Source: Candidatus Latescibacterota bacterium
GTDB lineage: Bacteria; Latescibacterota; UBA2968; UBA8231
Reading direction: 5' to 3'
DNA length: 64,000 bases
NCBI GenBank assembly: GCA_965203175.1
Contig: OZ241867.1
Location: 2,784,001-2,848,000, forward strand
The notes below the pieces were generated by a model. The model saw only the letters and a list, made by a program, of their open reading frames with translations. It did not search any database and had not been told where the DNA came from. Positions 7,416-27,839 of the stretch are shown here, piece after piece (position 1 is the first letter of the stretch; the number at the start of each line of letters is the position of its first letter). The position numbers and the translations under genes are program-made.

Positions 7416-8369
7416 ATGAAGAAGTCGACCCTTTTAGCCGCGGCCGCGGCTCTCTGCGTTACGACGCTGGCGAATGCCCAGCCGCCTATACGCTACTTTG
7501 ATTTACCCAAGTTTACCCAAGCTCCCACACTCGACGGCGACCGCGCAACTGTTGCCGACGAATGGGCTGGCGCGCTAGAATTCGACTGCTCGCCGAGCCA
7601 GATTCAGCTCGACGGTCAAGAGTTTGGCTGGCGCGATCAGGCGAACGAGTCCTCCGAAGTAAGCACCAACCAGCTCAATGAGAACGGCGAGACCGAAGTA
7701 GCTGGCGAAGGCCGCACCGACGCCGATGTCTCTTCGGTGATCTTGCAGGCGTGGGATGACGATGCCTTGTACTACATCACCGAGGTTAGCGATAACGTCC
7801 GCGACACCGAGGGTGGCGGCGAGGCACGGGCTTGGTGGGAGCGCGACTCCATGTCTCTCTACCTCGACATGAACAACGAAGATCACCCAGGTGGCGACCC
7901 GACTGGCGAGTACGTCAACCTGAATGTGGTCAACTTTATGGCCGTGCCCTTCGGCTCGAACGAACTGTCCGTCTGCTACATCACCACCGTGCAGAACCAG
8001 CGCGTGGATGTCCACGATCCCGATGCAATTGAGGGGTTTGAGTACGGTTTCCGCGACGCCGGTGACGAGTTTGGCGACGAAGGCGACGCCGACTACGTGA
8101 TTGAGGGTCGGATGGAGTGGGACACTTTCCTGCGCAACGGTAACCTCTTTGAAGCCCCTACGAGCGGCTCGGAGATGGGCTTCACTTGGCTGTTGGTTGA
8201 CGCCGATGGCGAAGATGCATATGGCGGCCAGATCCAGTGCGTAGCTTGGGCGGGCGGCAACCAGTCCGAGTTCGCCAACTGGGTCTTCGTGGATACGCCG
8301 GCTGGTCCGTCTGGCACCGCGGTCGAAGAAGATTCCTGGGGCCGCGTAAAGGAGACCTTCGTCCAATAG
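7416..8369 (+). CDS. Secreted CBM9/DOMON-like sugar-binding-domain protein with short C-terminal TAVEEDSWGRVK tail
   Basis: Signal peptide; APTLDG..DEW, AWDDDALYYITEVSD, DSMSLYLD, YVIEGRMEW, GFTWLLVDAD match the CBM9-like pattern; very acidic. Confidence 0.75.
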   Translation: MKKSTLLAAAAALCVTTLANAQPPIRYFDLPKFTQAPTLDGDRATVADEWAGALEFDCSPSQIQLDGQEFGWRDQANESSEVSTNQLNENGETEVAGEGRTDADVSSVILQAWDDDALYYITEVSDNVRDTEGGGEARAWWERDSMSLYLDMNNEDHPGGDPTGEYVNLNVVNFMAVPFGSNELSVCYITTVQNQRVDVHDPDAIEGFEYGFRDAGDEFGDEGDADYVIEGRMEWDTFLRNGNLFEAPTSGSEMGFTWLLVDADGEDAYGGQIQCVAWAGGNQSEFANWVFVDTPAGPSGTAVEEDSWGRVKETFVQ

Positions 8370-8400
8370 TCAATGACTTCTGGATAGGTTACGACAAAAT

Positions 8401-8439
8401 ACGGGAAGTGGGCTTGACGCCTGCTTCCCGTTTTTTTTT
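8401..8439 (+). terminator. Rho-independent terminator
   Basis: ACGGGAAGTGGGC-TTGAC-GCCTGCTTCCCGT stem-loop running into a T9 tract, 32 nt after the stop at 8369. Confidence 0.85.
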
Positions 8440-8513
8440 CTTGACCCGCGCGCTTTGGCAAATATATGTTTTCGCCCAATACCCAATACTTAAGTGACCC
8501 GCGAGGGGTTTTC

Positions 8514-11483
8514 ATGCTGTGTTTTCTAAAATGCCGCGTTGTCAAGCGCTGGGTGGTCTTGTCCGCGCTGGTTTGCGCTGGCCTGTACGCACCGGCAGAG
8601 GCGCAGCGCCACCCCGAATCTGCTGGCCCGCTGCCCTATTACGATCCTTCTCCCGGCACGCCGAAAGACCCGCCGTGGAAAAAGCGCCCCGCTTTTATTC
8701 GCGGTCCTCAAGACCGCTATGACCGAGGGTTGGGGCGGGCTTTTCTCAACACCGCAGTCAGCGTTCCCTATCTCAATTACGCCGACGAAAAGTACATTGC
8801 TTACTACCGCGAGACCGTTGCTTGGGCCACCCCGTCGGGCCGTCCTCTGAGCGCCCGCAACGTGGGTTGGGACCGGATGGGCAACTACATGGGGGGCGGC
8901 TATCAGCGGCTTCTGACGATAGAAGAGTCGCGCAGTGGCAATGACTTTAGTGGGCATAGCTATATTGACCACAAGTATCGGTCATTTCGGATCGGCCACT
9001 ATACTCACAAGGATTTGCACTGGACCGCCACGTTAGGTAACGTGGGCACACGAGGCGGTGCTACGGATGTGCGCACCATCTTCACGCCGCTCACGCTAGT
9101 CAACAGCAAGATGAGTGCGCTGCGCATGGACATCAACTACAAGGAGCGCGACCGGGCGACTCTGCTCTACTCGCGCGGCGGCGACCACTCCGGTGCCCAG
9201 TTGTTCTCCAAATGGGCGATTGGCCAAGAAGGCGACGACGCTTGGGACAACTCACCGGTGATACTTTTTGGCGGCCACTGGCAGCACGAAGTGGGCCGCT
9301 TCGCCAGCGTTGGCGGTACGCTAATCAACCAGATTATGAGTTCGCCAGATTTGTCGCGCACTAGCGCTTGGCGCGGCGATTTGCCCTATCAGATGCTCGG
9401 TCCCAAGACCATCCGCGTCTTCGTGGCCGACGACTCGCCCGATAACGCGCGGGCCAACGCCATTGTCTATGGCGTGGATATCGTCATTGAAGGCGAGCGC
9501 AACACAGAGCCGGTGCGCCTGACTAGCCTCGACGATGATCCAGACTATGATCCAATGCTAGAAGCCGGGCCACCCGAAGGCGGTGCCGTCCTCGCTGGCG
9601 GTGGGCTCGAGGCCGAGGGCAAAGTGCCGGTGGTTTACACCTTCGTCCTTCCGGCGGACGTGACCATGCGCTCGACGCGTTTTGTCGCCGATGTGGCTGG
9701 CGACTACCGGATCGGCGTCAGCCAGACCCACGACTTCTTCAATATTGATCGCCGAGGCACCGCGGCTATCACTGAGGTGGCTTGGCCAGCTCCCATTGCC
9801 AGCGCTGGTGAGCGGGCCATACGGCGTCCGTTCAAATGGTACACAGACGAGGACGAAGAACTGTACTACACCATCGTCCGCGCCGATGGCAGCGACGGGA
9901 CTGGTGCCAATCGACGGATGGTCTCCTTTGACTACGGCATTCCCACCGGGCAGAGCTTGGCCTCGATCAACTATCAGGTCGATCTGGTGGGGCTGGAAGT
10001 CAGCGGCGAGATGGCGCACAATCTGCAGAATTTCATGTTCCCAATTGGCAATAACGAAGGCCAGCGCAGCAACGAGCGCGCCTTTGCGTGGTGGGTCAAG
10101 GGCATCAAGAACGTCGCCGGTGGATTAGCGCTGGGCGGCGAGATATACCGCATGGAGCCTAATTACGGCGGCGGCTACGATAGCTATCGCGGCGGCATGG
10201 CCTTCCATTACGATGGGCAGCCTGCTCCCGGCGGCAGAATATCTACAGTTACCGAGGAATATCCCATCCACGAGGACAACGACGATCACGACCGTTTCCC
10301 CGACGACCACGTTAGTGATACAGCCGTTGCCGAACCACGCACGCTGTATCCAGGATTTCCCAATGCCCAAGTGTACCCCGGCCTCGACGAGAACGTCGAT
10401 AATATCCCGGACGTGGACCGCAACGAGAACTTCATTGTTGACTGGGAAGAGGCCTTTCTGACCTACGATTCGGAGCCGCCCGAATTTGTCTATGGCATTG
10501 ACTTCAACAACAACAACGTGCCCGATTTCCGCGAGAACGACGATAAGCCGGACTATCCCTATCCGCGCGACCAAAAGGGCCGGCACATTTTCCTTCGCTA
10601 CGACCGCTTGGGACGCTGGGGTGAGTTCGTCAGCATAGGCAGCTACGACAACCGTCAGATTGCCGGCCCGGGCAAGTCCGAGGGGATGTACTTCCGCTAC
10701 GCCTATGAGGTGGAAAAGCGCGGCGTTGGTGCACTGCAGCTTAACTTCGACGCCAAGCAGGTCAAAGACGACATCCCGGATCACACCTATGTGTACCGAG
10801 TGCCCATTGACGATGTCGAGGCCATTAGCTGGTTTAACGAGCCGGACGGCCCGCCCGAGCGCGCGGGCTTTTGGCGGCCAGCGACGCCGGACGAGCTGTT
10901 AATGCGCGACAGCTTTGTGCATCTCTTCTTTTTTGACAGCACTTATCAGGGCTTCCACGGATTCAACATTGAAAACGGCTTACTGTGGCAGCGCAATAGC
11001 CAAGCCGAAATTGAGCTTGAAGACGGCAGCGGGCTGTTGCAGCCCCAAGACGTGCGCTCGCGTTTTTCCATTGTCAACAAGATCGACTACACCCATAGCT
11101 GGGGAGCCTTCAGCGTCACGCCTAAGTTGAAGCATCGGACGATCTTTGAGCAGGTTGACAGCGAAGAGGTGCCGAGGAAATCGTACAGCGACTTCATCCC
11201 CATCGTAATGGGGCGGTACCAGCTCACGCCCAAGACTAGCTTCCAGCTAGGCGTACAGGGGCTACCCTTGCTGCCGTTTAAGCACTGGGATCGCGCCTTT
11301 GAGGATGGGACGTTCAGCCAGACCGATTATATGGCCATGCTGAGCATCACCGCAGACTACTTTGGCATCCGCGACAATTCGATATTCTTCGGCTATCAGC
11401 GCACGCGGCGGGACTTTAGCCATGCAGGGCGTCCCGATTCCAAGCAGGGCATCCTCTTCGTCGAGTTGATATCCCCCTTCTAA
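8514..11483 (+). CDS. Large secreted/outer-membrane protein of unknown function (paralog A) with Asp-rich Ca-binding-like segment
   Basis: ORF open from 8466; likely start ATG 8514 after GAGGGG. Signal peptide ends AEA; DNDDHDRFPD and DENVDNIPDVDRNENFIVD motifs; C-terminal amphipathic strands ending in Phe (ELISPF); clear paralog of 15479-18400. Confidence 0.85.
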   Translation: MLCFLKCRVVKRWVVLSALVCAGLYAPAEAQRHPESAGPLPYYDPSPGTPKDPPWKKRPAFIRGPQDRYDRGLGRAFLNTAVSVPYLNYADEKYIAYYRETVAWATPSGRPLSARNVGWDRMGNYMGGGYQRLLTIEESRSGNDFSGHSYIDHKYRSFRIGHYTHKDLHWTATLGNVGTRGGATDVRTIFTPLTLVNSKMSALRMDINYKERDRATLLYSRGGDHSGAQLFSKWAIGQEGDDAWDNSPVILFGGHWQHEVGRFASVGGTLINQIMSSPDLSRTSAWRGDLPYQMLGPKTIRVFVADDSPDNARANAIVYGVDIVIEGERNTEPVRLTSLDDDPDYDPMLEAGPPEGGAVLAGGGLEAEGKVPVVYTFVLPADVTMRSTRFVADVAGDYRIGVSQTHDFFNIDRRGTAAITEVAWPAPIASAGERAIRRPFKWYTDEDEELYYTIVRADGSDGTGANRRMVSFDYGIPTGQSLASINYQVDLVGLEVSGEMAHNLQNFMFPIGNNEGQRSNERAFAWWVKGIKNVAGGLALGGEIYRMEPNYGGGYDSYRGGMAFHYDGQPAPGGRISTVTEEYPIHEDNDDHDRFPDDHVSDTAVAEPRTLYPGFPNAQVYPGLDENVDNIPDVDRNENFIVDWEEAFLTYDSEPPEFVYGIDFNNNNVPDFRENDDKPDYPYPRDQKGRHIFLRYDRLGRWGEFVSIGSYDNRQIAGPGKSEGMYFRYAYEVEKRGVGALQLNFDAKQVKDDIPDHTYVYRVPIDDVEAISWFNEPDGPPERAGFWRPATPDELLMRDSFVHLFFFDSTYQGFHGFNIENGLLWQRNSQAEIELEDGSGLLQPQDVRSRFSIVNKIDYTHSWGAFSVTPKLKHRTIFEQVDSEEVPRKSYSDFIPIVMGRYQLTPKTSFQLGVQGLPLLPFKHWDRAFEDGTFSQTDYMAMLSITADYFGIRDNSIFFGYQRTRRDFSHAGRPDSKQGILFVELISPF

Positions 11484-11485
11484 GG

Positions 11486-12268
11486 ATGCGAATACACATG
11501 AGACTCATCGCAAAACACATTCGCGTCCTCCTGTGCTTGGCATTGGCCACCGGGGGGTGCGCTACTCTCAGATCCCTCGAATCGCATGCGCAGCGAGAGT
11601 ACGTCATTGAGCTGGAGCCGGTCCTACCTGATGGGGATATCTATTACATTGATCCGATCGACAGCTCGGTCGTGTGGAGCGAGCAAGGGGTACAAGTCAA
11701 GGTCAAGTTCTACGACGATGCCATGCTCGACTCCGAATACGATGTCCGCTTCACGCCTTATACACTCACGGGAGTCGAAATTCCCGGCCTGGACTATACG
11801 CCGCCTCTGTGGACCGTTTTTGAAGTGACTGTAATCAACCGCACGCGAGAGCGGGTGGAGCTAGATCCCACGCAGACTATTCTGCGCTTGGACGATGGTC
11901 GCCGCTTGCTTTGCCGCCAAGGGGCGGGAGGCTGGTACGACAAGGACGAGTTTTTCGACTATTCCTATCTGAAGTGGGGAGGTCAAGAAGGCAATGTACG
12001 CTATCACGCCAACCTAGACCGCAACCCGATCTGGTCCAAGAGCGAGTACTACCGGGAAAAGCCCGTGCGCAAAGGCTCCAGATACAGCGGCAAGTTGACC
12101 TTTCCTCCGCTGCCCGCAGAGACCAAGTCATTTACTCTCGAAGTAACTGACTTCATTCTGGCCTTTGATCGATTTGAAGTAGGGTACGGCAATCCAGTGG
12201 AATTTACCGACCTGAAATTCCACTTCAATGTCGATCACGGAGTGCATTGGGTGGAGAATAAGGAATGA
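11486..12268 (+). CDS. Hypothetical lipoprotein (paralog of 23311-24078)
   Basis: LATGGC lipobox-like signal; YTPPxxTVFEVxVINxT and IDPxDSS shared with 23311-24078. Confidence 0.8.
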   Translation: MRIHMRLIAKHIRVLLCLALATGGCATLRSLESHAQREYVIELEPVLPDGDIYYIDPIDSSVVWSEQGVQVKVKFYDDAMLDSEYDVRFTPYTLTGVEIPGLDYTPPLWTVFEVTVINRTRERVELDPTQTILRLDDGRRLLCRQGAGGWYDKDEFFDYSYLKWGGQEGNVRYHANLDRNPIWSKSEYYREKPVRKGSRYSGKLTFPPLPAETKSFTLEVTDFILAFDRFEVGYGNPVEFTDLKFHFNVDHGVHWVENKE

Positions 12269-12921
12269 AAAAGATGGTGAAATACCTCGGGGTGATGCTG
12301 CTTGTCGGTTCTGTGGCCTGTACTTTGAAATACGAGGCACTCAAGGATACCAGTTTGCCCAACCCACCGACGACGCCGATCAAAATATACGTCAAGGAAT
12401 TCCCGGTCGAGAGCAAGGCTAATGTAGTCGATCCGAGGATGGCCACTTCGGCCACTGACCAGTCAACTCAGTATGTCACGAACGCTCTTGCCAGCCATGG
12501 AAATAAACTGGTGCAGATTTCTCGCCCTTCGCGAATCGAGGATTTGTCTAAGGCCTTGTTGCACGAACTCCGCAGGGACAAGGTGCGGATCTTAACGCAG
12601 ACGGACCGGGTCGAGGTGCTAGACGAAGACAGCGTGCGGCAAGTGGACAACCCCTTTACTCTGGTGTCAGCAGAGTCAGACGAAGCCGACTTGGAAATTA
12701 GCGGCACGGCTCTGATTACCAGTCAGCGGGTGCGCAAAGTATTCTCCCCGCAAACGCAAAGAGTGCAGGTTGAGGTCTCCGTCAAGGATCTCAAAACCGG
12801 CAAAGTGAGCAAGAAAAATCCAGTGGATGCCGGTATTGTAATGATCTTTAACTCTAGGGAGTTGGAGGAAGCTCTCGCCATCGCCGTGATGACCAGCCTG
12901 ACGCAGAAACTGCTGTTTTGA
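12265..12921 (+). CDS. Hypothetical lipoprotein (alpha/beta fold, possibly CsgG/TolB-N-like)
   Basis: MKKMVKYLGVMLLVGSVAC lipobox; ATGA overlap with the upstream gene. The fold guess is weak. Confidence 0.75.
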   Translation: MKKMVKYLGVMLLVGSVACTLKYEALKDTSLPNPPTTPIKIYVKEFPVESKANVVDPRMATSATDQSTQYVTNALASHGNKLVQISRPSRIEDLSKALLHELRRDKVRILTQTDRVEVLDEDSVRQVDNPFTLVSAESDEADLEISGTALITSQRVRKVFSPQTQRVQVEVSVKDLKTGKVSKKNPVDAGIVMIFNSRELEEALAIAVMTSLTQKLLF

Positions 12922-12922
12922 A

Positions 12923-14581
12923 GTGCTGAGGCTGGGCGCACTCTTGCTCTTGCTTGAATTCAGTCCATGCCGTGCTGAATTAAAGACTTGGGTAGTGGAC
13001 ACGGTCGATACATTTGCCTTGGGAACGACCCAAGGTGTACAGGTGCATTCAGATAGCCTCGTCATCTTGGCGCATTTGGACGAGAATATAAATGTGGCCT
13101 TAGGACGATCAGTGACAGACGATTTTGACAAGCCTGTGCCGCTAACCGACGGCGCGATTGACCTCGTGCGGAGCGAGTGGATCTCGGGCACCAATCACGT
13201 GTTCGACAAGCAGTTTACTGTCGATCTAGGGCTGGACCGGGCGATCAAGCGCGTGCGATTGCTAGCCGGTGAGACGGCGCTGAACCAGCCCGAGTATTTC
13301 GTGCGTGGGTACAGGCTCGAAACAGCTTCCCAAGTGGCACCGCAAGTTTGGCATCTGTTGGCGGAACAGCCGGACAATTTCGTCCTCAATGTAGATACCA
13401 GCGCAGATTCTACTTGGGCCGCGACCGACGAGCGCGGAGAGGCAATCCCGCGTGCGGGTCGCTTCGTGCGGTTGACAATAATCCGCCAAGACCGCAGCAA
13501 CTGGGTCGCCATCGGCGAAATTGAGGTGTTTGGTGTGGGCTACGTTAGCGAAGGCTTCATAGAGGATAGCTTCGCTCCGCCTACCCCGGTCAACGTGGGG
13601 CTGATCCGCTGGCAAGTAGAGCGTCCGGAGCGCACGGGCATTGAGTTGCAGGTGCGCGGAACTACCGCAGAGAGTGCAGAAAAGCCTTGGGGAAGCATTG
13701 CGGTGCATACGGACGGGGAATTTTTCTACAGTGAGGATGAGCCGGTCGCGCAGTTGGCGTACCGGGCTCGTCTGACGAACTCGGCCCCCTTTGTCAGCCC
13801 GGTGCTCGAGCGCATTGCCATTGACTACGATCCCGTCTTGGTCGCCCAACAGCTCTTGGCGGAGGTCATCGTATCCGATTCACTGCGCAAGGGCGAGAAA
13901 GCGACGCTGATCTCCCGAGTGGAGATCGCGGCTGGCGTCAATGACTACGGGGTCGATCTCTTGCGCGTACAAGGCCCCTTGCTCCGCGTAGCAGCCGTGC
14001 GCGTCGATGGTCGAGAACTCGCGCCTATAGAGGATTACTCTTGGGGCCCGACGCCGGATCGGGAGGGGATACTGATAGAGCTTGCACCTAATGAGCAAAT
14101 CAACGCGATGGCTACTGTCGAAATTGAGGGACAGGCGCTCTTTGTGCGCGACAAGACCACCGTGCGCTTTGAGGCTGGCAACAAGGCTCAAGGCGATAGA
14201 GATGGGTACGTGAACTGGCAGCAGGGGCAAGAAATGCCGGGTGCGACTTGGACGGTACTGGCTGCGGGAACGCCGTTGCAGCTCTTGGGCGAAGTGCAGG
14301 TAGAGCCGCGCCCGTTCTCGCCGTTTGCAGACGAATATGCGCGCTTTGCTTTCGTCGTCGGCAATATCGAAGAGGGCCGGGAAGTCGTACTGAAAATTTA
14401 CAACTTGACCGGTCGGCCGGTTCGCCAATTAGCACAGACCGGAAGCGCCCGAACCTATCAGTTCGAGTGGGACGGCCGCGACGGCAGCGGTCGGGTTGTC
14501 GAGCCAGGGCTCTATCTGTATGAGGTTGGGATAGAAGGAAGCGATAAGGCGCGCCGAGGTACTTTTGTGGTGGCGTACTAG
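12923..14581 (+). CDS. Secreted protein with discoidin/F5-8-like domain and C-terminal FlgD-Ig/T9SS-like CTD
   Basis: FTVDLGLDRAIKRVRL...GRFVRLTI...AIGEIEVFG (discoidin-like); C-terminal PRPFSP...LKIYNLTGRPVRQL...WDGRDGSGRVVEPGLYLYEV (FlgD-Ig). Confidence 0.85.
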   Translation: MLRLGALLLLLEFSPCRAELKTWVVDTVDTFALGTTQGVQVHSDSLVILAHLDENINVALGRSVTDDFDKPVPLTDGAIDLVRSEWISGTNHVFDKQFTVDLGLDRAIKRVRLLAGETALNQPEYFVRGYRLETASQVAPQVWHLLAEQPDNFVLNVDTSADSTWAATDERGEAIPRAGRFVRLTIIRQDRSNWVAIGEIEVFGVGYVSEGFIEDSFAPPTPVNVGLIRWQVERPERTGIELQVRGTTAESAEKPWGSIAVHTDGEFFYSEDEPVAQLAYRARLTNSAPFVSPVLERIAIDYDPVLVAQQLLAEVIVSDSLRKGEKATLISRVEIAAGVNDYGVDLLRVQGPLLRVAAVRVDGRELAPIEDYSWGPTPDREGILIELAPNEQINAMATVEIEGQALFVRDKTTVRFEAGNKAQGDRDGYVNWQQGQEMPGATWTVLAAGTPLQLLGEVQVEPRPFSPFADEYARFAFVVGNIEEGREVVLKIYNLTGRPVRQLAQTGSARTYQFEWDGRDGSGRVVEPGLYLYEVGIEGSDKARRGTFVVAY

Positions 14582-15425
14582 CGTCCTATTGCTAGCCTTA
14601 GTTCCCCCGGTTGGCGCTGCTTTTGAATTTGCGGCACACGGGGCTCAGAGCACGGCACTGGGTGGGGCTTTTGCCGCCAGCATTCGGACGGCTGAGGCCG
14701 TTTGGTACAATCCGGCCGGTAATGCCCAGCAGCAAAAGTGGCAGGTTGGTACGACCCACGCGTTGATTTATCCTGGGTTGGACCAAAGCCCAGCCCTAAA
14801 CGGCTTGTCAATAACCGGCCCTTTGCGGGGCGGCGGCTTCCAATTGGGCCTCTCGTTTCTCGGTGCTGACGGCTGGCGGGAAGAAGTGATTGCCTTGGGC
14901 TACGGACGGCCGTTGCACGAGCGCTTCGCCCTAGGTGGCGGCTTGCGCACCAGCGCTTGGAAAGCTGGCGATCTGTCGCACCGGGCTTGGCACCTCGATG
15001 TAGGTGCAACTTGGGAAGTGGGTTTCATACACCCGAGGGCGTACCTGCGCTTGGCATTGGTTGCCAAAGGCTTAAACGGCGCGAACATCGCCGCGGGCGG
15101 CCAAGCTGCAGGTAAAGAAAAGCCGGCTGTAGTTGCGGCGGCCTTGCTCAACTTGGCAGGGCGGGAAGTCCTGTTCGACATTGAGCGCCGCGATGGGAGA
15201 ATGGAGTTCAGAGTGGGGTACGAGACGCGGACGGTGAGCCTCAACGGTGCTCGGTTTCGCATGGGCGGGGCCGCAGTTGGCTCGGGTTTTGATGAGAGAG
15301 AGCTCAACGTGGGGCTTGGACACAACTATGAGCAATGGCATTTCGATTATGCTTATTCCTACCCGCTGCACCTCTCCGGTTATGGAGGCGTGCATCGGTT
15401 CAGCGTTGGGTATCGCCAACACTGA
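14565..15425 (+). CDS. PorV/PorQ-like (FadL-superfamily) outer-membrane beta-barrel
   Basis: N-terminal GAQSTALGGAFAA...AVWYNPAG and C-terminal FDYAYSY...GGVHRFSVGY, with alternating beta strands between. Confidence 0.8.
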   Translation: MWWRTSVLLLALVPPVGAAFEFAAHGAQSTALGGAFAASIRTAEAVWYNPAGNAQQQKWQVGTTHALIYPGLDQSPALNGLSITGPLRGGGFQLGLSFLGADGWREEVIALGYGRPLHERFALGGGLRTSAWKAGDLSHRAWHLDVGATWEVGFIHPRAYLRLALVAKGLNGANIAAGGQAAGKEKPAVVAAALLNLAGREVLFDIERRDGRMEFRVGYETRTVSLNGARFRMGGAAVGSGFDERELNVGLGHNYEQWHFDYAYSYPLHLSGYGGVHRFSVGYRQH

Positions 15426-15478
15426 GTTAGAATGCGACTGAAAACCGAATATCTATACTTAGCATGAGGATAGCTGCC

Positions 15479-18400: not shown

Positions 18401-18418
18401 GCTTAGGAGATTGACACC

Positions 18419-21400
18419 ATGATTCTGGTAAATCTGCTGCTAGTCGCAGCGGTCGGCGTGGCTGCCAGCCTGAGCACGCGCTTCTTCTCGCCGGTGGAGC
18501 TGCAAGATCGCTTTGAAGAAGGTCAGAAGCTCTATGCGCTGGGGGACTACGATAGAGCCATTGAGCGCTATGAGGTCATTCTCTCCACCGAGAGCAATGC
18601 CATGATCAACGTGGAGGATGTAACCGTAGCGGTTGACGAGTTCATTCTGCCGGTGCGCGTGGGTGCCACCTACCAGCTCGGCAATACCTACAACAAGCTA
18701 GGTCTCGAAAAATTGCAGCGCTCGCAGTTTTTGCGCTCAGAGCAAAAAGAGGCCGAGGCCGACGCTCGCTACGAGGAGGCGTTGCAAGACCTCAACAAGA
18801 GCCGCGACCACTTCCGCACCCTAGCCGCGGACGATCTCGTCGACGATCGCACCCGGGTGATGGCGCAGTACCAGATGATCCAGACAAGCTACCAACTCAA
18901 GGAGTACGAGCAGGTCATAGAGCAAGGGGACGCGCTGCTGCGCAGATTCCCCCACAGCCTCTACGAGGCGTCCGTTCACTACGACCGAGCGTGGTCCTAT
19001 TTTGAATTGGAGCGCTACGAGGAGGCCATCGCTAGCTTCAAGCAGGTGTTGATCTTGGCCCCCAGAGGCTCTAACGCCGATCGCTCGCTCTTCCAGATCG
19101 CCGAGAGCTACGACAAACTAGGGCAGTACGAAGATGCGCTGGAGTACCTCGACCGTCTAATCGCCCGCTACGATTTCGCGCAGATGACCGAGGAAGAAAT
19201 CATCGAGATGACCACCCTCAAGCTCAAGGGGTTGGTCAAGGAGACGGCGCGCGAGCTAGTCGCCAAGGCCCACCTGAAAAAGGGCGATATCTATGCACAC
19301 AACGGCGAGGTCGAAAAGGCTCTCGCCTCTTATGCCGTACTCCCAGTTGAATACGCGGCCGAGCCGGTCTTGGTACAAAATAGCTATATCCGCACCGCCG
19401 AGTTGGTGCAGAAGGAACAGGGCACGACAGCGGCCATTGCCGCGTACAAGGACGCCATCGAAAAAGTCGAGGACAAGCTCTTCCAGGCCCGTACGCAGCT
19501 AACGGTAGCCCTGATGCTTTTCGACCAGGACGAATACCTCAAGTCGGCGCAAGAATACGAGATATATATCAATGCCTACGGCGATGTGGCTCAGCGCATC
19601 GGATTTGACCGCTACAAGGTTCTCTTTCGCATCGCCCAGTGTCACCAAGAATACGGGCGGCAGATCCGCAGCGAGGATTCGGCTAGAGCAGACGCGGAAA
19701 TCGCCAAGGCGCTCGAAAGCTACGACCAGCTCTTGAGCGAGCGCGAGGACAATGCCCTGATACCGGATGTGCTTTTTAACGCTGGCTTCGCCAATCAGCT
19801 CCTAAAGAAAGACGAAGCAGCCCAGCCGCTGTACCAGCGGTTAGTCGATGAGTATCCGGACCATCCGGCGGCTCCCAACGGCCTTTTGCAATTGGCTCGC
19901 ATAGCCTATGCCGCATCTGAACTCAAACAGGCCGAGGAAGTCTATGCATCCTTCCTCGACCGTTTCCCGGCCTCGGAACTGTGCAATACGACGCGGATGG
20001 AGTTGGGCCTTACCTACAAGCGCCTCCAGGATACAAATAGCGCCATCGCCGCCTATGAGACGGTGGAAGAGGATTGGGATAAGTGGCCTACCGTGCAGGT
20101 CGAGTTGGCCGAGCTATACATGGGTAAGCAAGAGTACGAAAAGGCGCGCAAAGCGCTATCTCGCGCCTTGGATCGAGCCGGCGACAACACCCTAAAAGGC
20201 CAGATGCACTACACCTTGGCTCGGGTACATTTCGCCGAGGACAATTTCGCGGGCGCGATCAACTCTTGGGGTCAGGCCATTGCGCTGAATCCGCCCACGC
20301 ACATCCTGCAAAATTCGCTGCTGGCCCGCGGTGGTGCTTACTACGAGGTGGCCAAACAGCAAGACGCCGTCGGCGATACAGCCACAGCCCGCATAAGCTA
20401 TGAGGCATCGCTGGAGGATATGAAGGCCCTGCTCGAAAGCGATCCCACTCCCCAGATCAAAGACAGTGCTTTCCGCACGCTGGGGGCGGGCATGATCCGT
20501 CTGGGGCGACAAGAAGAGGCAGCTAGCTACTATCAAGAGCTCATCGCCGCGTCGGACGATCCCCAAGAGCAGGCGACCTTTAGCATGCTGCTAACCGAGC
20601 TCTACTACGATCAGCAGGACTTCATTCAAGCCGAGAACTTCGCTCGCCAGCTACTCGACATGCGGTTTGAAGACGACAATCAAGCGGGTTACTATCGGAA
20701 AGAACGCGCCTATTCCATCATCGGCAATGCGTTGCTGCAGCAGAAGAAATACGAGGAAGCCGCCCGCATCTTTGCCCAAGGTCTCAAGCGCTATCCGAAT
20801 TCCGGCGAGAGTGGCAACTTGGCTTTCTCCAAGGGCTTTGCCGAAATCAGCTATGGCGACTACGCCGCCGCCGCCAAGAGCTTTAGGAGCTTTGTCAAAA
20901 AATATCCGCGCAATGCCAACCGCATTCACGGCCAGTACTATCTGGCCCACAGTCTCCAGGCCCTGACCCAGTTCAGGGAGGCCGCCGCCGCTTTTGCCGA
21001 GCTTGTCGAGCGCTATCTCCAGTCCCAATACGAGGAAGAAGCGCTTTTCCTCATTGGCGAAAACTATTACAACGAGCAGGCCTTTGCCGAGGCCGTGGCT
21101 GCATACCAAGCGCTCTTGGCAAAATATCCCCAAGGCCGATACGGCGGGTCGGCGCAGTACGCGTTGGCTTGGTCTTTCGTCGAACAAGAAGAGATGGAGC
21201 AAGCTGTAGGCGCGATGCAAAACCTAGTTGCCAATTACCCCGAGAGCGAATTCGCCCCCAAAGCGCAGTTTACCATCGGCGACTACTACTACAACATCCA
21301 GTCGTATGACGAGGCCATGGTGGCCTACAAGCAAGTACTCAAGCTATATCCCAACTCCGAGGAGGCGTCGAGGGCCACTGCCCTAGTGGAAGAGCTAAGC

Positions 21401-21691
21401 GAGATCCAGGCCAGCTTTAGCTACAACGAGGCCATGAAGCTGTTTGAAGCCAAAGACTACGACCGAGCCGTGCCAGCCCTACAGAATATTATCCGCGATT
21501 ACCCTGGCACCTATACCGAATTGGCCGCGTACTGCAACTTGGGGCTGGTCTATGAAATTACGCGCCAGTGGTCGCAGGCCGTGGAAAACTATCAGGTAGT
21601 AGAGGAAAAAGGTGGGGACAAGCCGGAAAACGCCGACGTAGTCAGTTTTGCCAAGCTGCACCGAGAATGGATCGTGGAAAACCGGCTCTAG
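18419..21691 (+). CDS. Large TPR protein (BamD/YbgF-CpoB-like repeats)
   Basis: AGGAG RBS; hydrophobic N-terminus; many TPRs ending in [FY]PxS-type motifs (LVDEYPDHP, FLDRFPAS, LKRYPNS, LVANYPES). Confidence 0.92.
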   Translation: MILVNLLLVAAVGVAASLSTRFFSPVELQDRFEEGQKLYALGDYDRAIERYEVILSTESNAMINVEDVTVAVDEFILPVRVGATYQLGNTYNKLGLEKLQRSQFLRSEQKEAEADARYEEALQDLNKSRDHFRTLAADDLVDDRTRVMAQYQMIQTSYQLKEYEQVIEQGDALLRRFPHSLYEASVHYDRAWSYFELERYEEAIASFKQVLILAPRGSNADRSLFQIAESYDKLGQYEDALEYLDRLIARYDFAQMTEEEIIEMTTLKLKGLVKETARELVAKAHLKKGDIYAHNGEVEKALASYAVLPVEYAAEPVLVQNSYIRTAELVQKEQGTTAAIAAYKDAIEKVEDKLFQARTQLTVALMLFDQDEYLKSAQEYEIYINAYGDVAQRIGFDRYKVLFRIAQCHQEYGRQIRSEDSARADAEIAKALESYDQLLSEREDNALIPDVLFNAGFANQLLKKDEAAQPLYQRLVDEYPDHPAAPNGLLQLARIAYAASELKQAEEVYASFLDRFPASELCNTTRMELGLTYKRLQDTNSAIAAYETVEEDWDKWPTVQVELAELYMGKQEYEKARKALSRALDRAGDNTLKGQMHYTLARVHFAEDNFAGAINSWGQAIALNPPTHILQNSLLARGGAYYEVAKQQDAVGDTATARISYEASLEDMKALLESDPTPQIKDSAFRTLGAGMIRLGRQEEAASYYQELIAASDDPQEQATFSMLLTELYYDQQDFIQAENFARQLLDMRFEDDNQAGYYRKERAYSIIGNALLQQKKYEEAARIFAQGLKRYPNSGESGNLAFSKGFAEISYGDYAAAAKSFRSFVKKYPRNANRIHGQYYLAHSLQALTQFREAAAAFAELVERYLQSQYEEEALFLIGENYYNEQAFAEAVAAYQALLAKYPQGRYGGSAQYALAWSFVEQEEMEQAVGAMQNLVANYPESEFAPKAQFTIGDYYYNIQSYDEAMVAYKQVLKLYPNSEEASRATALVEELSEIQASFSYNEAMKLFEAKDYDRAVPALQNIIRDYPGTYTELAAYCNLGLVYEITRQWSQAVENYQVVEEKGGDKPENADVVSFAKLHREWIVENRL

Positions 21692-21739
21692 CGAGCTTTC
21701 AATGCAACGCAAAGCAGGACACAATACCGGGAGGTTGTA

Positions 21740-22414
21740 ATGGAGCAGAATTTTTTAGTTGAACAGTTTTTCAAAGGTGGGCCTATAATGTGGCCCCTGT
21801 TGCTCTGCTTGCTGATCGCCCTAGCCATCATCATAGAACGGCTGTGGCGCCTGCTGGCGGTCCCGGACGAACAGGAGGCCGAACAGCAGCTCAACGAGGC
21901 AGAGGAAGTGCTCAGAGACCAAGGCGAAGGCGGGGCTATTGAGCTATTTCGGCAGGGCAGTGGCGTGCTCAACTTCATTTTCGCTGCCTTGGTGAAGCGC
22001 TACGACACCTTAGTGCTGGAAAATCGCACGGACCTAGAGGACATGCGTCAAGAGTTGATTTTGGCCACTGAGGAGGCCGGTGAGATGTATCTCGGCCGCC
22101 TGCTCAACGCGCTGGGAACCATTGGCGTCCTCTCCCCGCTGATGGGGCTGTTGGGCACGATCATGGGTATGATTAACGCCTTTGACGCGATTGCCCGCGC
22201 CGGAGCCGGCGATCCGGCAGCCGTGGCCAGTGGCATTTCCGAGGCCCTGATTACTACAGCCAGTGGCCTCATCGTCGCCATTCCGACCATCATCTTCCAC
22301 CGCTACCTCTCCGGCCGCGCGGAAAAGGTCTTCAAGAGCGTGGAGCTATACTGCCACGCCTTCGCCAATACCCTGCTGGTGCGCTTTCAGGCCAGCCAGC
22401 AGGAAGCCAGCTAG
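21740..22414 (+). CDS. exbB: MotA/TolQ/ExbB proton channel subunit
   Basis: GGPIMWPL, LGTIGVLSPLMGLLGTIMGMINAF and GISEALITTASGLIVAIP signature helices; GGAGG RBS. Confidence 0.95.
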   Translation: MEQNFLVEQFFKGGPIMWPLLLCLLIALAIIIERLWRLLAVPDEQEAEQQLNEAEEVLRDQGEGGAIELFRQGSGVLNFIFAALVKRYDTLVLENRTDLEDMRQELILATEEAGEMYLGRLLNALGTIGVLSPLMGLLGTIMGMINAFDAIARAGAGDPAAVASGISEALITTASGLIVAIPTIIFHRYLSGRAEKVFKSVELYCHAFANTLLVRFQASQQEAS

Positions 22415-22432
22415 GCAGAAAGAGACGCTGCG

Positions 22433-22852
22433 ATGCGGCAGAGACGGAAAAGCGGATATGGCAAAAGCGCCTTTAAGACCTCGGAAAACCCGGATCTGAC
22501 TCCGCTGATCAACTGCATGTTCTTGCTGTTGGTTTTCTTCATGGTGGCGACCACTTTCGTCAATCCCAAGGGTCTGAGCGTAGATCTGCCGGGCGGCGAA
22601 GGCGAGTCGAGGGCAACCAAGGACATGAACATCGTGATTGATCCAGATCAGACGATTCAGGTCAACGGCGAGGTCACGGATAAGGCGAGATTGGCGGAAA
22701 AGATCCGTCAAGTCATCGAGGCCGACAACACCAAGAACGTGATCTTGGAGTCCGCGCGTTCAATACCTCACTCTTATGTAGTGCAGGTGATGGACATCGC
22801 CCGCGGCGAGGGCATTGAAGCCATCGCTTTCGCCAAGAGCGGAGAAGGATAA
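22433..22852 (+). CDS. exbD: ExbD/TolR family protein (conserved TM Asp replaced by Asn)
   Basis: DLTPLINCMFLLLVFFMV TM motif, VDLP, VVQVMDIAR..GI. Confidence 0.92.
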   Translation: MRQRRKSGYGKSAFKTSENPDLTPLINCMFLLLVFFMVATTFVNPKGLSVDLPGGEGESRATKDMNIVIDPDQTIQVNGEVTDKARLAEKIRQVIEADNTKNVILESARSIPHSYVVQVMDIARGEGIEAIAFAKSGEG

Positions 22853-22859
22853 AAGCGGC

Positions 22860-23279
22860 ATGGCTAAACGGAGACAGTCGCTGGCCGAGAAAGCCGGTGA
22901 ATTTGAACTGAACCTAACGCCGATGATAGACGCGGTGTTCCTGCTGCTGATCTTCTTTATGACTACCACGGTCTTTGTCAAGGCTACTCAGCTCAAGATC
23001 GAGCTGCCCGACTCGGCCCACTACGATCAACTCAAGGCAGAGAAGAAGCTGAATCTGCGCATCTCGAGCGAGGGCCAGCTCGAGATCAACGGGCAGCTAG
23101 TGGCTATGGGCCAGCTAGCGAGTTGGCTCGAGCGCGAGAAGGTCCGCACTGGCTCATCGACGCTGATTATCACTGCGGACGCCGATGCTGCACACGGCCA
23201 TATCATCGATGCGATGGAATCGGCCACCATGGCGGGCGTAGAACAGATCGACATTGAAACCGAGGAACCAACCAATTGA
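22860..23279 (+). CDS. exbD: ExbD/TolR family protein
   Basis: NLTPMIDAVFLLLIFFM TM motif with canonical Asp, IELP, LIITAD...HGHIIDAM. Start adjusted to ATG 22860. Confidence 0.93.
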   Translation: MAKRRQSLAEKAGEFELNLTPMIDAVFLLLIFFMTTTVFVKATQLKIELPDSAHYDQLKAEKKLNLRISSEGQLEINGQLVAMGQLASWLEREKVRTGSSTLIITADADAAHGHIIDAMESATMAGVEQIDIETEEPTN

Positions 23280-23310
23280 CGACAGCTAGCAAAAAGGGAG
23301 TTGCAATTTT

Positions 23311-24078
23311 ATGAGAGCAAGGTATATGGCGCTCCTCGGAGTAGTGGCGCTCGGGCTAGTCTGGAGTTGCGGGGGGCTAGTGCCGCCCCAACTCGTGTAC
23401 GACCTGCACGTGATGCCCGTCCTGCCCGAGGGCCGCGGCGATTACACCATTGATCCGGACGACAGTTCGATGGTCTTTAGCAAAGAGGGGCTTTTGATCA
23501 AGATCCGGCACCTGAGTGACCTCGAACTCAACGAGCGCTTCCCGCCCCTATACGATGGTCGCCACGTCAACCCCTACACCCGGGACGACATCGATCCCGA
23601 AAAGGGCTATACTCCACCCCGGTTTACCGTTTTTGAAGTCGAGGTCATAAACAAGACCTATGCGAAGATCGAATTCGACCCAGCCAAGGCGACCATGGAA
23701 TCGGGCGGCGAGACCTATCGCTACTACGACCCCGGGCGCGAGGGGGCCGTCGTGTTGGGGGGCAACAGCTTCACTAAGTACTACAAGATGGAGCTCGGCA
23801 CTTCGGGCAACGAGCGCGAAATCAACTTAGAGCGCATGGGCATTATCTACAAGACGGTCTTCCACCGCCATCGACCGATCTTCCGCGATAGCAATCAAAA
23901 AGGCATGTTGGTCTTCGACCCGTTGCTGCCAGAAAACGATGAGTTGCTACTCACATTCCACGAATTTGTGCTTTCGTTTGACGCCAGCGGCAATCCGGAA
24001 GAGACTATCGACGTTGAGTTCCGCTTTGCGGTGGACCAAGGAACGAGGGAAAAGACCAGCGCGGACGGGACGGGTTGA
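23311..24078 (+). CDS. Hypothetical lipoprotein (paralog of 11486-12268)
   Basis: GGGAG RBS; LVWSC lipobox; shares PVLP, IDPxDSS and YTPP..TVFEV.VIN.T motifs. Confidence 0.82.
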   Translation: MRARYMALLGVVALGLVWSCGGLVPPQLVYDLHVMPVLPEGRGDYTIDPDDSSMVFSKEGLLIKIRHLSDLELNERFPPLYDGRHVNPYTRDDIDPEKGYTPPRFTVFEVEVINKTYAKIEFDPAKATMESGGETYRYYDPGREGAVVLGGNSFTKYYKMELGTSGNEREINLERMGIIYKTVFHRHRPIFRDSNQKGMLVFDPLLPENDELLLTFHEFVLSFDASGNPEETIDVEFRFAVDQGTREKTSADGTG

Positions 24079-24129
24079 ATCCCGGCGCTACTCCATCTGG
24101 ATAGCACGTATGACAGGATGTCTCATTGC

Positions 24130-24163
24130 GAGGAGCTGGACCTTCCGTCTAGCTCCTCTTTTT
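24130..24163 (+). terminator. Probable rho-independent terminator after the ExbBD/lipoprotein genes
   Basis: GAGGAGCTGGA-CCTTCCG-TCTAGCTCCTC stem-loop followed by TTTTT. Confidence 0.6.
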
Positions 24164-25816
24164 ATGCACAAACCACTGTTGGCCGGGCTGCTAGTTGGGG
24201 CCTGCATTAGCTGTGACGATGAGCGGCCGGACAACGCCTCGCTGTTGGCCAAGGTCGGCGCGGTCGAGATCACCGCGGCCGATCTGCGCACCTTTGAGGC
24301 TAATCTCAAAACGGCCGCCATGCGCTCGCAGCACCGGGACAATTTGCAGACGCTAATTGACCGCGAGGTGTTGCTTTTGGAGGCCAACGAGCGGGATTTG
24401 CAGCGCGACGAAGAGGTCTTAGCTGAACTCGCCAAGCGCGAAACCAAGGCCCTTGCTGACGCGATGTTGCGGCGCAACGTCGCGGCCAAGGTCGCGGTGA
24501 CTGAGGGCGACATCGAAAAGGCCTACGCGCGGCCGGGATGGGGAGAGAAGGTCGTCACTATGGAGATCTTTGTGCCTAGTCAGGAACAGGCGCGTCAGGT
24601 GCAAGCGCTTTTGGCACAGGGCGAGGACTTTGCGGAAGTAGGTCGTCAATTCGCCGCTGATCCTTATTATGGCTTGCATACCGGCGAAATCCGGCGGCTG
24701 GCCTATTCTCCCTTCGATAGCCCCCACGCCTTGGTGGAAGCGGTCTTCGCCCTGCCCGTGGACGGTGTGACCGAGCCACTCCCCTTGCACGGAGGATTCG
24801 TCATCGCCAAAGTGGCGGAGCGTCGCCGCGCTGAATTGGTCGAGGTCGAGGATGGCATCCGCGAGGCACTCGGCGACGAGCAGAAAAAGCAACTGCGCGA
24901 ATCGTACCTGCGACACCTCAAGTGGGATCTGGACACGGTTTTTGACGCTGAGGGTATGGATCTAGTGGTCAGCGTCTTACAGGGCGCGATCCGCTATGCG
25001 GATTTGGACGAGGCCCAGCGCCAGCAGCCAGTCTATGCTTTCGAGGGCCTGCAGATGGATGTGGCAGAGGTCTTAGAGGCCGTGCGGCCATCGGGCCGAC
25101 CGTGGCCGGAAGCCACAGCCGACGCCGTCAACGAGAAACTATCTGAGAGTCACTTTCCCACCCGCATCATGGCCCACGACGCTCGGCGCAAGGGCCTTGA
25201 TAAAAGCGAGGCTTTCGCGCAGTCGCATGCCTTGGCGTTGGGCAATCTGATGCTGATAAAACTGCGCGAGCAAATCTTGGCGGAGGCTCCCGAGCCGACG
25301 GAGGACGAGCTGCGGGCCTTCTACGAGGAGTACAAGCACCGCTTTCGCAGCCCTCCCCACGCGCAATTAGAGGAAATTTTGTTAGAGACCCCAAGCGAGG
25401 CGCGCCAGATTGCGGCTCAGATTGCGGCGGGTGCCGAGTGGTCAGAGCTGGCCCGCGCCCACAGCCAGCGTCGCAACGCCGAAGATGGTCTCCTGTACGT
25501 CTCCCAATCACAGGCCCCTTTCTTGGGGGAGGCTTGGATGAACGCGGTGATGAACGCCGAGCTGCACCAGCTCCAAGGGCCGATCCAAACGAGGGGGGGC
25601 TATTCGATTTTCCGGGTTATCGAAAGATATCCAGAGATTTATCACGGCTTAGAGTTAGAGCGGGTGCGGAATGCGGTGGTGCGGGACGTGCGCGAGCGCA
25701 CCGAGCGGGAGTTCTTCAACAGCTATCTGCGAGATTTGCGCCAAAAATACGCCGAGCAGATTGACGTGTACGAAGAGCACCTGCGGTTTTTGGACGACGA
25801 GTTGGTGCAGAACTGA
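24164..25816 (+). CDS. PpiC/parvulin-type peptidyl-prolyl isomerase lipoprotein (SurA/PrsA-like, two PPIase-like domains)
   Basis: MHKPLLAGLLVGACISC lipobox; LAKVGAVEIT, LIDREVLLLEA, GEDFAEVGRQF, PIQTRGGYSIFRV. Start uncertain (ORF open from 23939). Confidence 0.85.
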   Translation: MHKPLLAGLLVGACISCDDERPDNASLLAKVGAVEITAADLRTFEANLKTAAMRSQHRDNLQTLIDREVLLLEANERDLQRDEEVLAELAKRETKALADAMLRRNVAAKVAVTEGDIEKAYARPGWGEKVVTMEIFVPSQEQARQVQALLAQGEDFAEVGRQFAADPYYGLHTGEIRRLAYSPFDSPHALVEAVFALPVDGVTEPLPLHGGFVIAKVAERRRAELVEVEDGIREALGDEQKKQLRESYLRHLKWDLDTVFDAEGMDLVVSVLQGAIRYADLDEAQRQQPVYAFEGLQMDVAEVLEAVRPSGRPWPEATADAVNEKLSESHFPTRIMAHDARRKGLDKSEAFAQSHALALGNLMLIKLREQILAEAPEPTEDELRAFYEEYKHRFRSPPHAQLEEILLETPSEARQIAAQIAAGAEWSELARAHSQRRNAEDGLLYVSQSQAPFLGEAWMNAVMNAELHQLQGPIQTRGGYSIFRVIERYPEIYHGLELERVRNAVVRDVRERTEREFFNSYLRDLRQKYAEQIDVYEEHLRFLDDELVQN

Positions 25817-27828: not shown

Positions 27829-27839
27829 GGGGGCGCACA

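Follow-up and report, generated by a model that had tools for sequence, protein, structure and literature searches.

The 64,000-nucleotide stretch of Candidatus Latescibacterota bacterium DNA analysed here (contig OZ241867.1, positions 2,784,001 to 2,848,000; hereafter the window) contains, at positions 7416-25816, a run of 13 plus-strand open reading frames (ORFs) that abut or overlap and all encode predicted envelope proteins. As judged from sequence comparisons, this cluster is the best-conserved, motor-bearing copy of a so far undescribed trans-envelope system belonging to the FCB group (Fibrobacteres-Chlorobi-Bacteroidetes), in which an ExbB/ExbD-class motor is tied to a family of giant outer-membrane (OM) barrels without a Pfam or NCBIfam model. 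We read it tentatively, at somewhat less than an even chance, as a Ton/Glt-like, motor-gated energised OM transport system, likely for uptake. New here are the 62-copy cassette organisation of the barrels, their co-amplified partner families, two kinds of fusion in the lipoprotein family that we call L, the co-distribution of L proteins and barrels, and the absence of TolB and Pal matches. Proton-motor-driven trans-envelope systems are few (Ton, Tol, Agl-Glt and T9SS, the system for type IX secretion), and each of them has opened a field. The source assembly is a single contig of 6.58 Mb, 93% complete, with 4876 crude ORFs; coordinates prefixed C1 refer to it.

The genes of the cluster, in window coordinates, are the following.

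7416-8369, plus strand: exported CBM9/DOMON-like protein (CBM9_1, 39.3 bits) with a C-terminal [ST]WGx[IVL]K tail.
8466-11483, plus strand: predicted giant outer-membrane barrel A, 1005 aa, by AlphaFold2 model and by Foldseek and VIA searches; C-terminal Phe.
11486-12268, plus strand: lipoprotein L1 of the L family, lipobox by eye; paralog of L2.
12265-12921, plus strand: 218-aa lipoprotein, lipobox by eye.
12923-14581, plus strand: surface-protein candidate with a T9SS type-B-like C-terminal domain (CTD); FlgD_ig 29.5 bits, CHU_C 20.4 bits, weak F5_F8_type_C_2 (discoidin).
14565-15425, plus strand: small OM barrel of the PorV/PorQ/PorP superfamily (NCBIfam PorV_fam, 45.9 bits).
15464-18400, plus strand: predicted giant outer-membrane barrel B, 978 aa, paralog of A.
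18419-21691, plus strand: 1090-aa tetratricopeptide repeat (TPR) protein, matching TPR families, with an N-terminal hydrophobic anchor or signal.
21740-22414, plus strand: ExbB/TolQ-type proton channel subunit (MotA_ExbB, 100.7 bits).
22433-22852, plus strand: ExbD/TolR-type subunit 1 (ExbD, 89.7 bits).
22815-23279 (ORF), plus strand: ExbD/TolR-type subunit 2 (ExbD, 102.6 bits).
23311-24078, plus strand: lipoprotein L2 of the L family, following ExbD-ExbD.
24164-25816 (ORF open from 23939), plus strand: two-domain parvulin peptidyl-prolyl isomerase (PPIase), SurA/PrsA-like (Rotamase_2, 84.5 bits; Rotamase, 52.2 bits).

Three genes flank it.

4996-6210, minus strand: "up2", a TonB-shaped protein with an N-terminal transmembrane (TM) helix, a Pro/Lys/Arg-rich linker and a DUF4159 head (Pfam, 40 bits).
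6207-7238, minus strand: "up1", an exported 343-aa protein, signal peptide by eye, labelled as co-transcribed with up2.
25837-27828, plus strand: OPT-like polytopic membrane protein, 663 aa, with about 11 hydrophobic segments; candidate inner-membrane importer.

Up2 and up1 diverge upstream of the cluster, the OPT-like gene stands directly after the PPIase gene, and these flanks travel with the cluster in relatives. ExbD2 probably starts at 22860 instead of 22815; the likely start of the PPIase, probably a lipoprotein, is Met76 at 24164, just before a lipobox, and not 23939; and the start of barrel A could be Met17 at 8514.

The first-pass annotation of this DNA, made from the letters alone, had described 13 co-directional, abutting or overlapping envelope genes, and profile searches confirmed both the ORFs and their domains. 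A signal peptide, lipobox or TM anchor, which it had ascribed to every product, is visible by eye at the N-terminus of all 13 translations. The two pairs of paralogs that it had proposed are genuine (A and B, 36% identity, E 2e-174; L1 and L2, 34%, E 3e-34), and in the profile searches these four proteins and the 218-aa lipoprotein matched no Pfam or NCBIfam family at E <= 0.1. For A and B this covers Plug (PF07715), TonB_dep_Rec and the SprA models TIGR04189 and SprA_N. Profile scans found no TonB_C, Plug, SusD, TolB or Pal domain in the 13 cluster genes and no family above threshold in up1.

The structure of A was modelled by AlphaFold2 from a 64-sequence alignment (mean pLDDT 77.9, pTM 0.79). 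The model has 44 beta-strand elements and hardly any helix past the signal peptide; its low-confidence regions are the first ~130 residues and a very acidic stretch at ~600-700, into which most invariant Asp/Asn columns of the barrel alignment fall. Foldseek returned exclusively large OM barrels (MtrB, E 5e-9; SlpA, E 2e-6; LptD, FrpB, FimD and SprA), with TM-scores all <= 0.24, and VIA ranked the Deinococcus SlpA complex highest (Z 13.7 and rmsd 8.2 over 396 aligned residues), with porins next (Z 11-12.8). The model of A is thus a giant beta-barrel without a close solved relative, SlpA being, weakly, the nearest structure on record. SlpA is the S-layer deinoxanthin-binding complex of Deinococcus radiodurans (PDB 7ZGX, 8AE1, 8AGD); apart from the best structural match, the likeness comprises a sub-threshold Pfam SlpA_C score (27.1 bits) on one B-type relative, whereas the differences include the low TM-score, ~10% identity, and no SLH or coiled-coil part in A. 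In the models the SlpA match is hardly above the porins, which points to shared large-barrel architecture only.

A is not a TonB-dependent receptor, because neither a Plug family nor a receptor family is matched, whereas elsewhere in the genome the Plug profile has 32 matches, 31 above the Pfam cut-off. Nor is it SprA, because the genome's own SprA, a genuine member of the ~2300-aa class, sits elsewhere (618 bits, one 2133-aa frame, C1:2482242-2487677). Both assignments were rejected for B as well, and the first-pass annotation, which had set A and B apart from ordinary TonB-dependent receptors and from SprA, was right on this point. All 30 ESM-Atlas clusters nearest to B are unnamed, and the nearest named one, DUF6029 (0.89), is a candidate only. 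A profile search of 1.84 billion representatives found 1069 proteins at E <= 0.001, 751 at E <= 1e-10 and 350 at E <= 1e-30; in a word-indexed search all 100 matches listed were "hypothetical" or unnamed, their sources being mostly Latescibacterota. By these searches the barrels form a new family. Its members share a conserved segment right after the signal peptide, which is long and near-invariant in parvulin-linked paralogs and is reduced to an "NYA...Y...YD..GN"-type core in motor-linked barrels.

A profile built from the A/B alignment found 62 full-length paralogs of 861-1049 aa (every E <= 1e-164) among the crude ORFs. From their lengths, the family takes up about 2.6% of the 6.6-Mb genome, and several-fold more together with its co-amplified partners. 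The 62 barrels fall into 40 loci, and as the window cluster is only one of these, the likely logic shifts to few motors serving many barrels. The 561 genes lying no more than six genes from a barrel were clustered into families, which were then counted genome-wide against a background of 11.5% near a barrel. Enriched families were parvulins (35 of 38 near barrels), L lipoproteins (15 of 18), CBM9-like proteins (28/36), PMT_2-plus-TPR proteins (11 of 14), CTD proteins (118/167), TPR proteins of ~470 aa (22/34), FG-GAP/UnbV_ASPIC proteins (26 of 58) and DUF6785+DUF6784 membrane proteins (22 of 53). The usual cassette order is a CBM9-like gene, one to three CTD genes, one to three barrel genes, a parvulin gene and often an L gene; the window cluster has one of each cassette element plus the motor part. 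The CBM9-like family f3 (36 members), which opens most barrel loci, is a paralog family of the window CBM9-like gene (profile-profile 99.7%, E 2e-26); its assignment as a PorV-like barrel was rejected (hhalign probability 0.2%).

Conservation was assessed in a scan of one genome per species, which gave 549 stretches with relatives; 74 loci were returned, and the window proteins were placed in them by tblastn. The first-pass annotation had expected gene order to be kept in relatives, and across Latescibacterota it is, far beyond chance; 19 loci from other genomes (among the 74) share the order A-L1-lipoprotein-CTD-PorV-B-TPR. Most of these 19 end at the 10-kb flank, just past the TPR gene. The interval from TPR to L2 is covered in six orthologous loci, four of which (L018, L020, L029 and L045) have ExbB-ExbD-ExbD there. 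The PPIase gene follows L2 in all six, and the OPT-like gene comes next in five, the sixth (L029) stopping at a contig edge. Across the orthologous loci the 218-aa lipoprotein is 47-94% identical, and up1, beside up2, 31-94%. The OPT-like protein downstream of the PPIase is 77-99% identical in the five relatives, where the adjoining PPIase reaches 33-91%, so that it is far better conserved than its neighbours.

Another suggestion of the first-pass annotation, that the apparatus is lineage-specific, has to be given up. A reduced core, made up of the CTD protein, the PorV-like barrel, one giant barrel, the giant TPR protein, ExbB, one ExbD, DUF4159 and L, was found in L074 (Ignavibacteriaceae by title), L072 (Kryptoniota) and L068 (Bacteroidota), and without a PorV match in L066 (Ignavibacterium); L071 (Ignavibacterium album by title) is truncated. 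In G081-G084, the four of these non-Latescibacterota genomes that were searched whole, there is exactly one barrel each, and the single-copy core in Ignavibacteria makes the question accessible in a cultivable relative. Within the phylum of the window the barrel occurs in 45/81 genomes, including 14/14 of its own family and 0/35 in three other families, and in the phylum sample around G081 (Ignavibacteriaceae) in only 5/201. The L family, with the same pattern from family to family, is present in 43/81 genomes, namely 43/45 barrel-positive and 0/36 barrel-negative ones, kin among these genomes not being independent. Four metatranscriptome libraries, which come from three studies, contain contigs 90-99% alike that cover 30, 29, 15 and 28 of 30 bins; in one library (X17) one contig spans 17544-21818 and another 21789-24203, which shows presence only, since contigs reveal neither transcription nor operon structure and DNA carry-over is possible.

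By score the motor subunits come nearest to Tol proteins. The best equivalog is TolQ for ExbB (90.5 bits, cut-off 221) and TolR for both ExbD subunits (57.2 bits for ExbD1 and 61.2 for ExbD2, cut-off 127.3). The TPR protein matches TIGR02795 (YbgF/CpoB) in nine stretches with 224.1 bits against a cut-off of 90.1, and its PDB sequence matches are CpoB and YbgF chains; it is a giant of many repeats, roughly four times as long as CpoB. It also scores 117.8 bits on PorW/SprE, below the cut-off of 250. TolB_N and Pal_lipo had no match in the genome, with Escherichia coli and Caulobacter controls positive. These observations invite an envelope-maintenance explanation, in which the single-copy core would replace Tol-Pal, the motor and CpoB-like TPR protein tethering or remodelling the OM, e.g., at division, and the barrels of the cassettes would have branched off later. 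The Tol-like scores, the CpoB-type repeats and the lack of TolB_N/Pal_lipo in a 93%-complete, one-contig assembly all suit this explanation, as do the facts that A and B are the best-conserved barrels and that G081-G084 have exactly one copy each; tol-pal is, moreover, not identifiable in Bacteroidetes, according to passages of PMC12204202. It nevertheless seems improbable to us, since five TPR modules and 62 barrels per genome are ill-suited to a housekeeping tether, the cluster has no TolA, TolB or Pal and no peptidoglycan-binding OmpA/Pal domain, and the TolQ/TolR scores are far under the equivalog cut-offs. Failure to find the barrel in 36/81 genomes (35/35 in three families) and in 196/201 would also be odd for an essential function.

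The candidate force transducers include two families. First, the L proteins: L2 modelled by AlphaFold2 as a beta-sandwich (pLDDT 89.1), with generic beta-sandwich lipoproteins as VIA matches (YcdA, Z 9.1, and YjhA, Z 8.1, being best) and no Foldseek match at E <= 0.001. L2 holds the slot after ExbD-ExbD that is occupied by TonB in the canonical ExbB-ExbD-ExbD-TonB operon of the genome (C1:3503113-3505267). Three longer L paralogs (375-413 aa) from two other TPR clusters of the genome carry at their C-terminus an AgmX/PglI domain (57.2, 61.8 and 48.6 bits, cut-off 40), a TonB-C-like domain known from GltG and GltJ, which are gliding proteins of Myxococcus; L proteins with such a tail are also found in six loci of other genomes. 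In L066, L068, L072 and L074, L is fused to DUF4159. Second, the DUF4159 proteins: up2 consists of a cytoplasmic start, one TM helix, the Pro/Lys/Arg-rich linker and the DUF4159 head, and most of its 13 own-genome matches have the same layout. DUF4159 homologs adjoin the giant TPR gene in own-genome clusters, and in the Ignavibacteriaceae locus L074 one sits directly after ExbD. The S-x3-H helix motif, described for TonB/TolA-like transducers in parts of PMC12204202, is present in three ExbD-adjacent DUF4159 copies, of which two are in own-genome clusters and one in L074. The DUF4159 protein matched nothing in PDB sequences below E 0.3, and the head of up2 is DUF4159 by Pfam, with no VWA match.

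The claim of the first-pass annotation that the cluster has no TonB/TolA is therefore correct only in part: no TonB_C domain was found in the 13 genes, but by sequence features the architecture is not TonB-less, given the TonB-shaped DUF4159 protein upstream and the TonB-C-like tails on three L paralogs. A giant TPR gene with DUF4159 and L genes is found at five genome loci only, with ExbB/ExbD adjoining in four of the five; the whole genome has seven MotA/ExbB matches.

The CTD protein of the window reaches 29.5 bits on FlgD_ig and 20.4 on CHU_C (cut-off 27 for both) and matches the PorU C-terminal region (NCBIfam, E 4e-7); among PDB sequences the FlgD Ig domain alone was matched. For a Pfam census at E <= 0.001, every second one of the 120 near-barrel members was taken, 60 in all, together with the window copy. 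Among these 61 proteins FlgD_ig was found in 55, CHU_C in 52, F5_F8_type_C in 24 and F5_F8_type_C_2 in 19, and a catalytic family in 0/61. They look like type-B-CTD, lectin-like surface binders, not enzymes, and the window protein is probably cargo of the separate canonical T9SS of the genome. Besides SprA, the genome encodes a PorU that passes the cut-off, and among 231 first-look candidates another 50 C-terminal-domain matches were scored; the separate T9SS, as predicted from these SprA and PorU genes, can therefore export the CTD proteins. The GldM_4th, GldM and GldL profiles had no match in the genome and were silent in control genomes too, so that absence is not shown. Of the genome-wide checks named in the first-pass annotation, those for SprA and TonB found both, SprA and a canonical Ton operon lying elsewhere in the genome.

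The PorV-like barrel scores 45.9 bits (E 5e-12) on NF033709, below the curated cut-off of 90; PorV_fam gives 74.8 bits on the L074 ortholog, over profile positions 8-326 of 326, and 73 bits on an own-genome paralog, which indicates homology at the superfamily level, not curated PorV membership. The PDB sequence matches of the PPIase are PrsA and Cbf2 chains. Both roles suggested in the first-pass annotation, that of a chaperone for the PPIase and that of a periplasmic link for the TPR protein, are putative. For the OPT-like protein no Pfam family was found; the ESM-Atlas clusters nearest to it bear the name "peptide transporter family", and 15-33% of their members carry OPT. Its similarity to a DUF6785 protein was not significant in BLASTP (E 0.11) and was rejected, the link being ESM-Atlas neighbours only. 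It has four genome paralogs, one of them beside a barrel locus, and a DUF6785+DUF6784 membrane protein near a barrel locus scores 368.6 bits.

The tail motif of the CBM9-like protein of the window (8334-8366) was found 81 times in the crude proteome, in all 81 cases no more than 15 residues from the C-terminus, ~1-2 occurrences being expected anywhere by chance (an estimate). Carriers include 28 CBM9-like proteins beside barrels (27 f3 members and the window copy) and, among others, a tandem array of small exported proteins, e.g., C1:1361532-1376241. Judging by its position, the motif resembles a C-terminal tail for sorting or docking, of a kind not yet described and with no TM segment.

These surface components could also belong to a surface-protein machine, an explanation that we regard as unlikely, in which the barrels would export, anchor or assemble the CTD and CBM9-like proteins (a variable coat or adhesins) and the motor would drive secretion, release or movement, as GldLM does for T9SS and SprB, or Agl-Glt for adhesion complexes. 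Every cassette has one to three type-B-CTD proteins, and the gene after the CTD gene encodes, in the motor clusters, a PorV/PorP-like barrel. Comparable parts (a giant barrel, PorV, a prolyl isomerase and a TPR lipoprotein) make up the extended translocon of the T9SS, solved as SprA-PorV-PPI-SkpA-SprE (title of the PDB entry), and the TPR protein matches PorW/SprE (117.8 bits). The AgmX/PglI tails of the GltG/GltJ gliding type, the enrichment of PMT_2 glycosyltransferase-TPR genes near barrels, the S-layer barrel SlpA as best fold match of A and the tail common to 81 proteins, a possible docking signal, fit in the same way. However, the canonical SprA and PorU elsewhere can account for CTD export, 62 barrels would be costly for display alone, the OPT-like and DUF6785 membrane proteins near the loci stay unexplained, and both the PorW/SprE and PorV scores are under curated cut-offs.

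Motor-gated uptake is preferred because there are many barrels and few motors, partners that are TonB-shaped or TonB-C-tailed, lectin-like proteins that are not enzymatic, and OPT-like or DUF6785 proteins nearby. By the logic of Ton, a few inner-membrane motors with periplasm-spanning transducers would open or drive many OM barrels. Three components would act as transducers: the protein with the DUF4159 head, the L family, part of which has a TonB-C-like tail, and a scaffold formed by the giant TPR protein. The CTD proteins, exported by the separate T9SS and held at the surface (in this cluster presumably by the PorV-like barrel), would serve as substrate catchers, and incoming material would be taken over by the parvulin and by membrane proteins of the OPT-like or DUF6785 kind. 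The net direction would most likely be uptake of a polymer or oligomer, such as a glycan, glycopeptide or peptide, A and B being the housekeeping or ancestral pair.

Several observations weigh against this interpretation. In two of the six loci that cover the interval from TPR to L2, L026 and L028, there is no ExbB/ExbD in it. The TPR gene runs straight into L2 there (L026, 7379-7424; L028, 9842-9949), and B is 62% identical to window B; because no room is left for ExbB/ExbD, motor genes can, as far as these sequences go, be unlinked from the cluster. Profile scans gave no TonB-C-like tail on L1 and L2 of the window, and the TM helix of the window up2 is without S-x3-H. The 31 Plug matches and the canonical Ton operon provide uptake capacity otherwise. 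Sulfatases, considered as a part of the cassette, were rejected, since 6/48 near barrels is the background level (11.5%), and ABC sugar-transporter genes are found at only a few barrel loci; the 11/14 PMT_2 glycosyltransferase-TPR proteins suit the assembly of a surface structure equally well. Finally, in structure A comes closest to a barrel that anchors an S-layer, and the direction of transport is read from gene neighbourhood alone.

A more far-reaching form of the uptake interpretation would make the system a third kind of energised OM import, distinct from TonB-dependent transporters and from SusCD and run by Latescibacterota and some relatives: plug-less barrels of ~900-1000 aa in dozens of substrate-specific cassettes, fed by T9SS-displayed lectin-like and CBM9-like proteins, opened by a handful of ExbB/ExbD motors through DUF4159/L transducers and the TPR scaffold, with the cargo going on to parvulin chaperones and OPT-like permeases. 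We hold this to be doubtful; if true, it would be a complete nutrient-acquisition architecture not seen before. Motor-gated uptake in the general form would explain the feeding of an abundant, uncultured, polymer-degrading phylum and add a new class of giant gated channels. Should one of the other two explanations be true, the system would either fill the Tol-Pal gap in FCB bacteria or add a T9SS-coupled display system.

As the first-pass annotation had maintained, the set fits none of the known systems: by profile evidence no membership test is passed as a whole, be it for Tol-Pal, Ton and TonB-dependent transporters, SprA/T9SS or Agl-Glt. By architecture only, the Agl-Glt (Nfs) core complex of Myxococcus and relatives is the nearest unit that has been described. 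According to passages of Luciano et al. (2011, PMC3169522), this core consists of TolQ, two TolR, the TPR proteins GltD/E/C and the TonB-like GltG (aglR/Q/S, gltD/E/G/C), and its role outside gliders is unresolved. In both cases one TolQ-like and two TolR-like genes are accompanied by a large exported TPR protein (GltD, 1191 aa) and a TonB-like transducer, and the GltG/GltJ-type AgmX/PglI domain occurs on the three L paralogs of this genome. However, no Glt equivalog cut-off is reached (GltC, 20.8 bits vs 450; GltE, 90.9 vs 225, the latter on a neighbouring TPR family), and the window genes are without an AgmX/PglI domain. At the OM, barrels of ~1000 aa and a PorV-like one stand in place of the small GltA/B/H, and T9SS-type CTD proteins are included.

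With Ton and the SusC/SusD-type polysaccharide utilization loci (SusCD) the system shares few ExbB/ExbD motors and many OM barrels, amplified in cassettes with surface binders and inner-membrane transporters, and the barrels resemble TonB-dependent transporters in having a conserved N-terminal segment. For the TonB box of such transporters and the TonB C-terminal domain with which it pairs, possible counterparts are this segment and the TonB-C-like tails on three L paralogs. In contrast to these systems, there is no Plug/TonB_dep_Rec on A and B, and no SusD or TonB_C in the cluster, and the binders bear T9SS CTDs instead of the lipid anchors of SusCD.

The likeness to the T9SS consists in a giant barrel, a PorV-like barrel, a prolyl isomerase, a large TPR protein, a 5:2-type proton motor and cargo-type CTDs, whereas A and B are not SprA, the motor is ExbB/ExbD instead of GldL/GldM, and the PPIase is a parvulin. 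Periplasmic force transducers whose head is a vWA domain (von Willebrand factor A), with an SHLS-type His in the TM helix, beside TPR-tolQ-tolR-tolR, are described in parts of Williams-Jones et al. (2025, PMC12204202). Up2 and its paralogs resemble these in their TM helix, Pro-rich linker and globular head, and in L074 in their position right after ExbD; the window up2 differs in being divergent and upstream, in having a DUF4159 head by Pfam and in the missing S-x3-H motif. The main text of that paper has no occurrence of "Ignavibacteri", "Latescibacter" or "DUF"; where it says "barrel", six times in all, other proteins are meant.

A literature search, including Latescibacteria or Ignavibacteria with ExbB, PorV or outer membrane, found no description of this barrel-motor system. 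It returned no DUF6785 paper and none linking Latescibacterota to type IX secretion, and DUF4159 only in the Pfam database paper; the ExbB mention in the relevant passage of PMC4454575 concerns ordinary Ton import.

Some further genes of the window and of the barrel loci should be mentioned. Between the start of the window and up2 lie, as assigned by gene order, members of the ~470-aa TPR family f6 (1186-2415, plus strand) and of the FG-GAP/UnbV_ASPIC family f4 (2419-4098, minus strand); f6 and f4 pairs recur beside barrel loci. Proteins combining PMT_2 (a GT-C glycosyltransferase) with TPR, e.g., C1:3097380-3099413 (L094), hint by their domain content that something in the barrel loci is glycosylated in the periplasm. 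An FGE-sulfatase-domain protein just downstream of the cluster (27750-28676, 176.5 bits) belongs to a family with 5/12 members near barrels. The GldK/PorK-type T9SS lipoproteins are of the same superfamily. Finally, a conventional TonB-dependent receptor is encoded further downstream, where a Plug match of 61.7 bits (46696-46965; C1:2830696-2830965) lies within a 765-aa frame.

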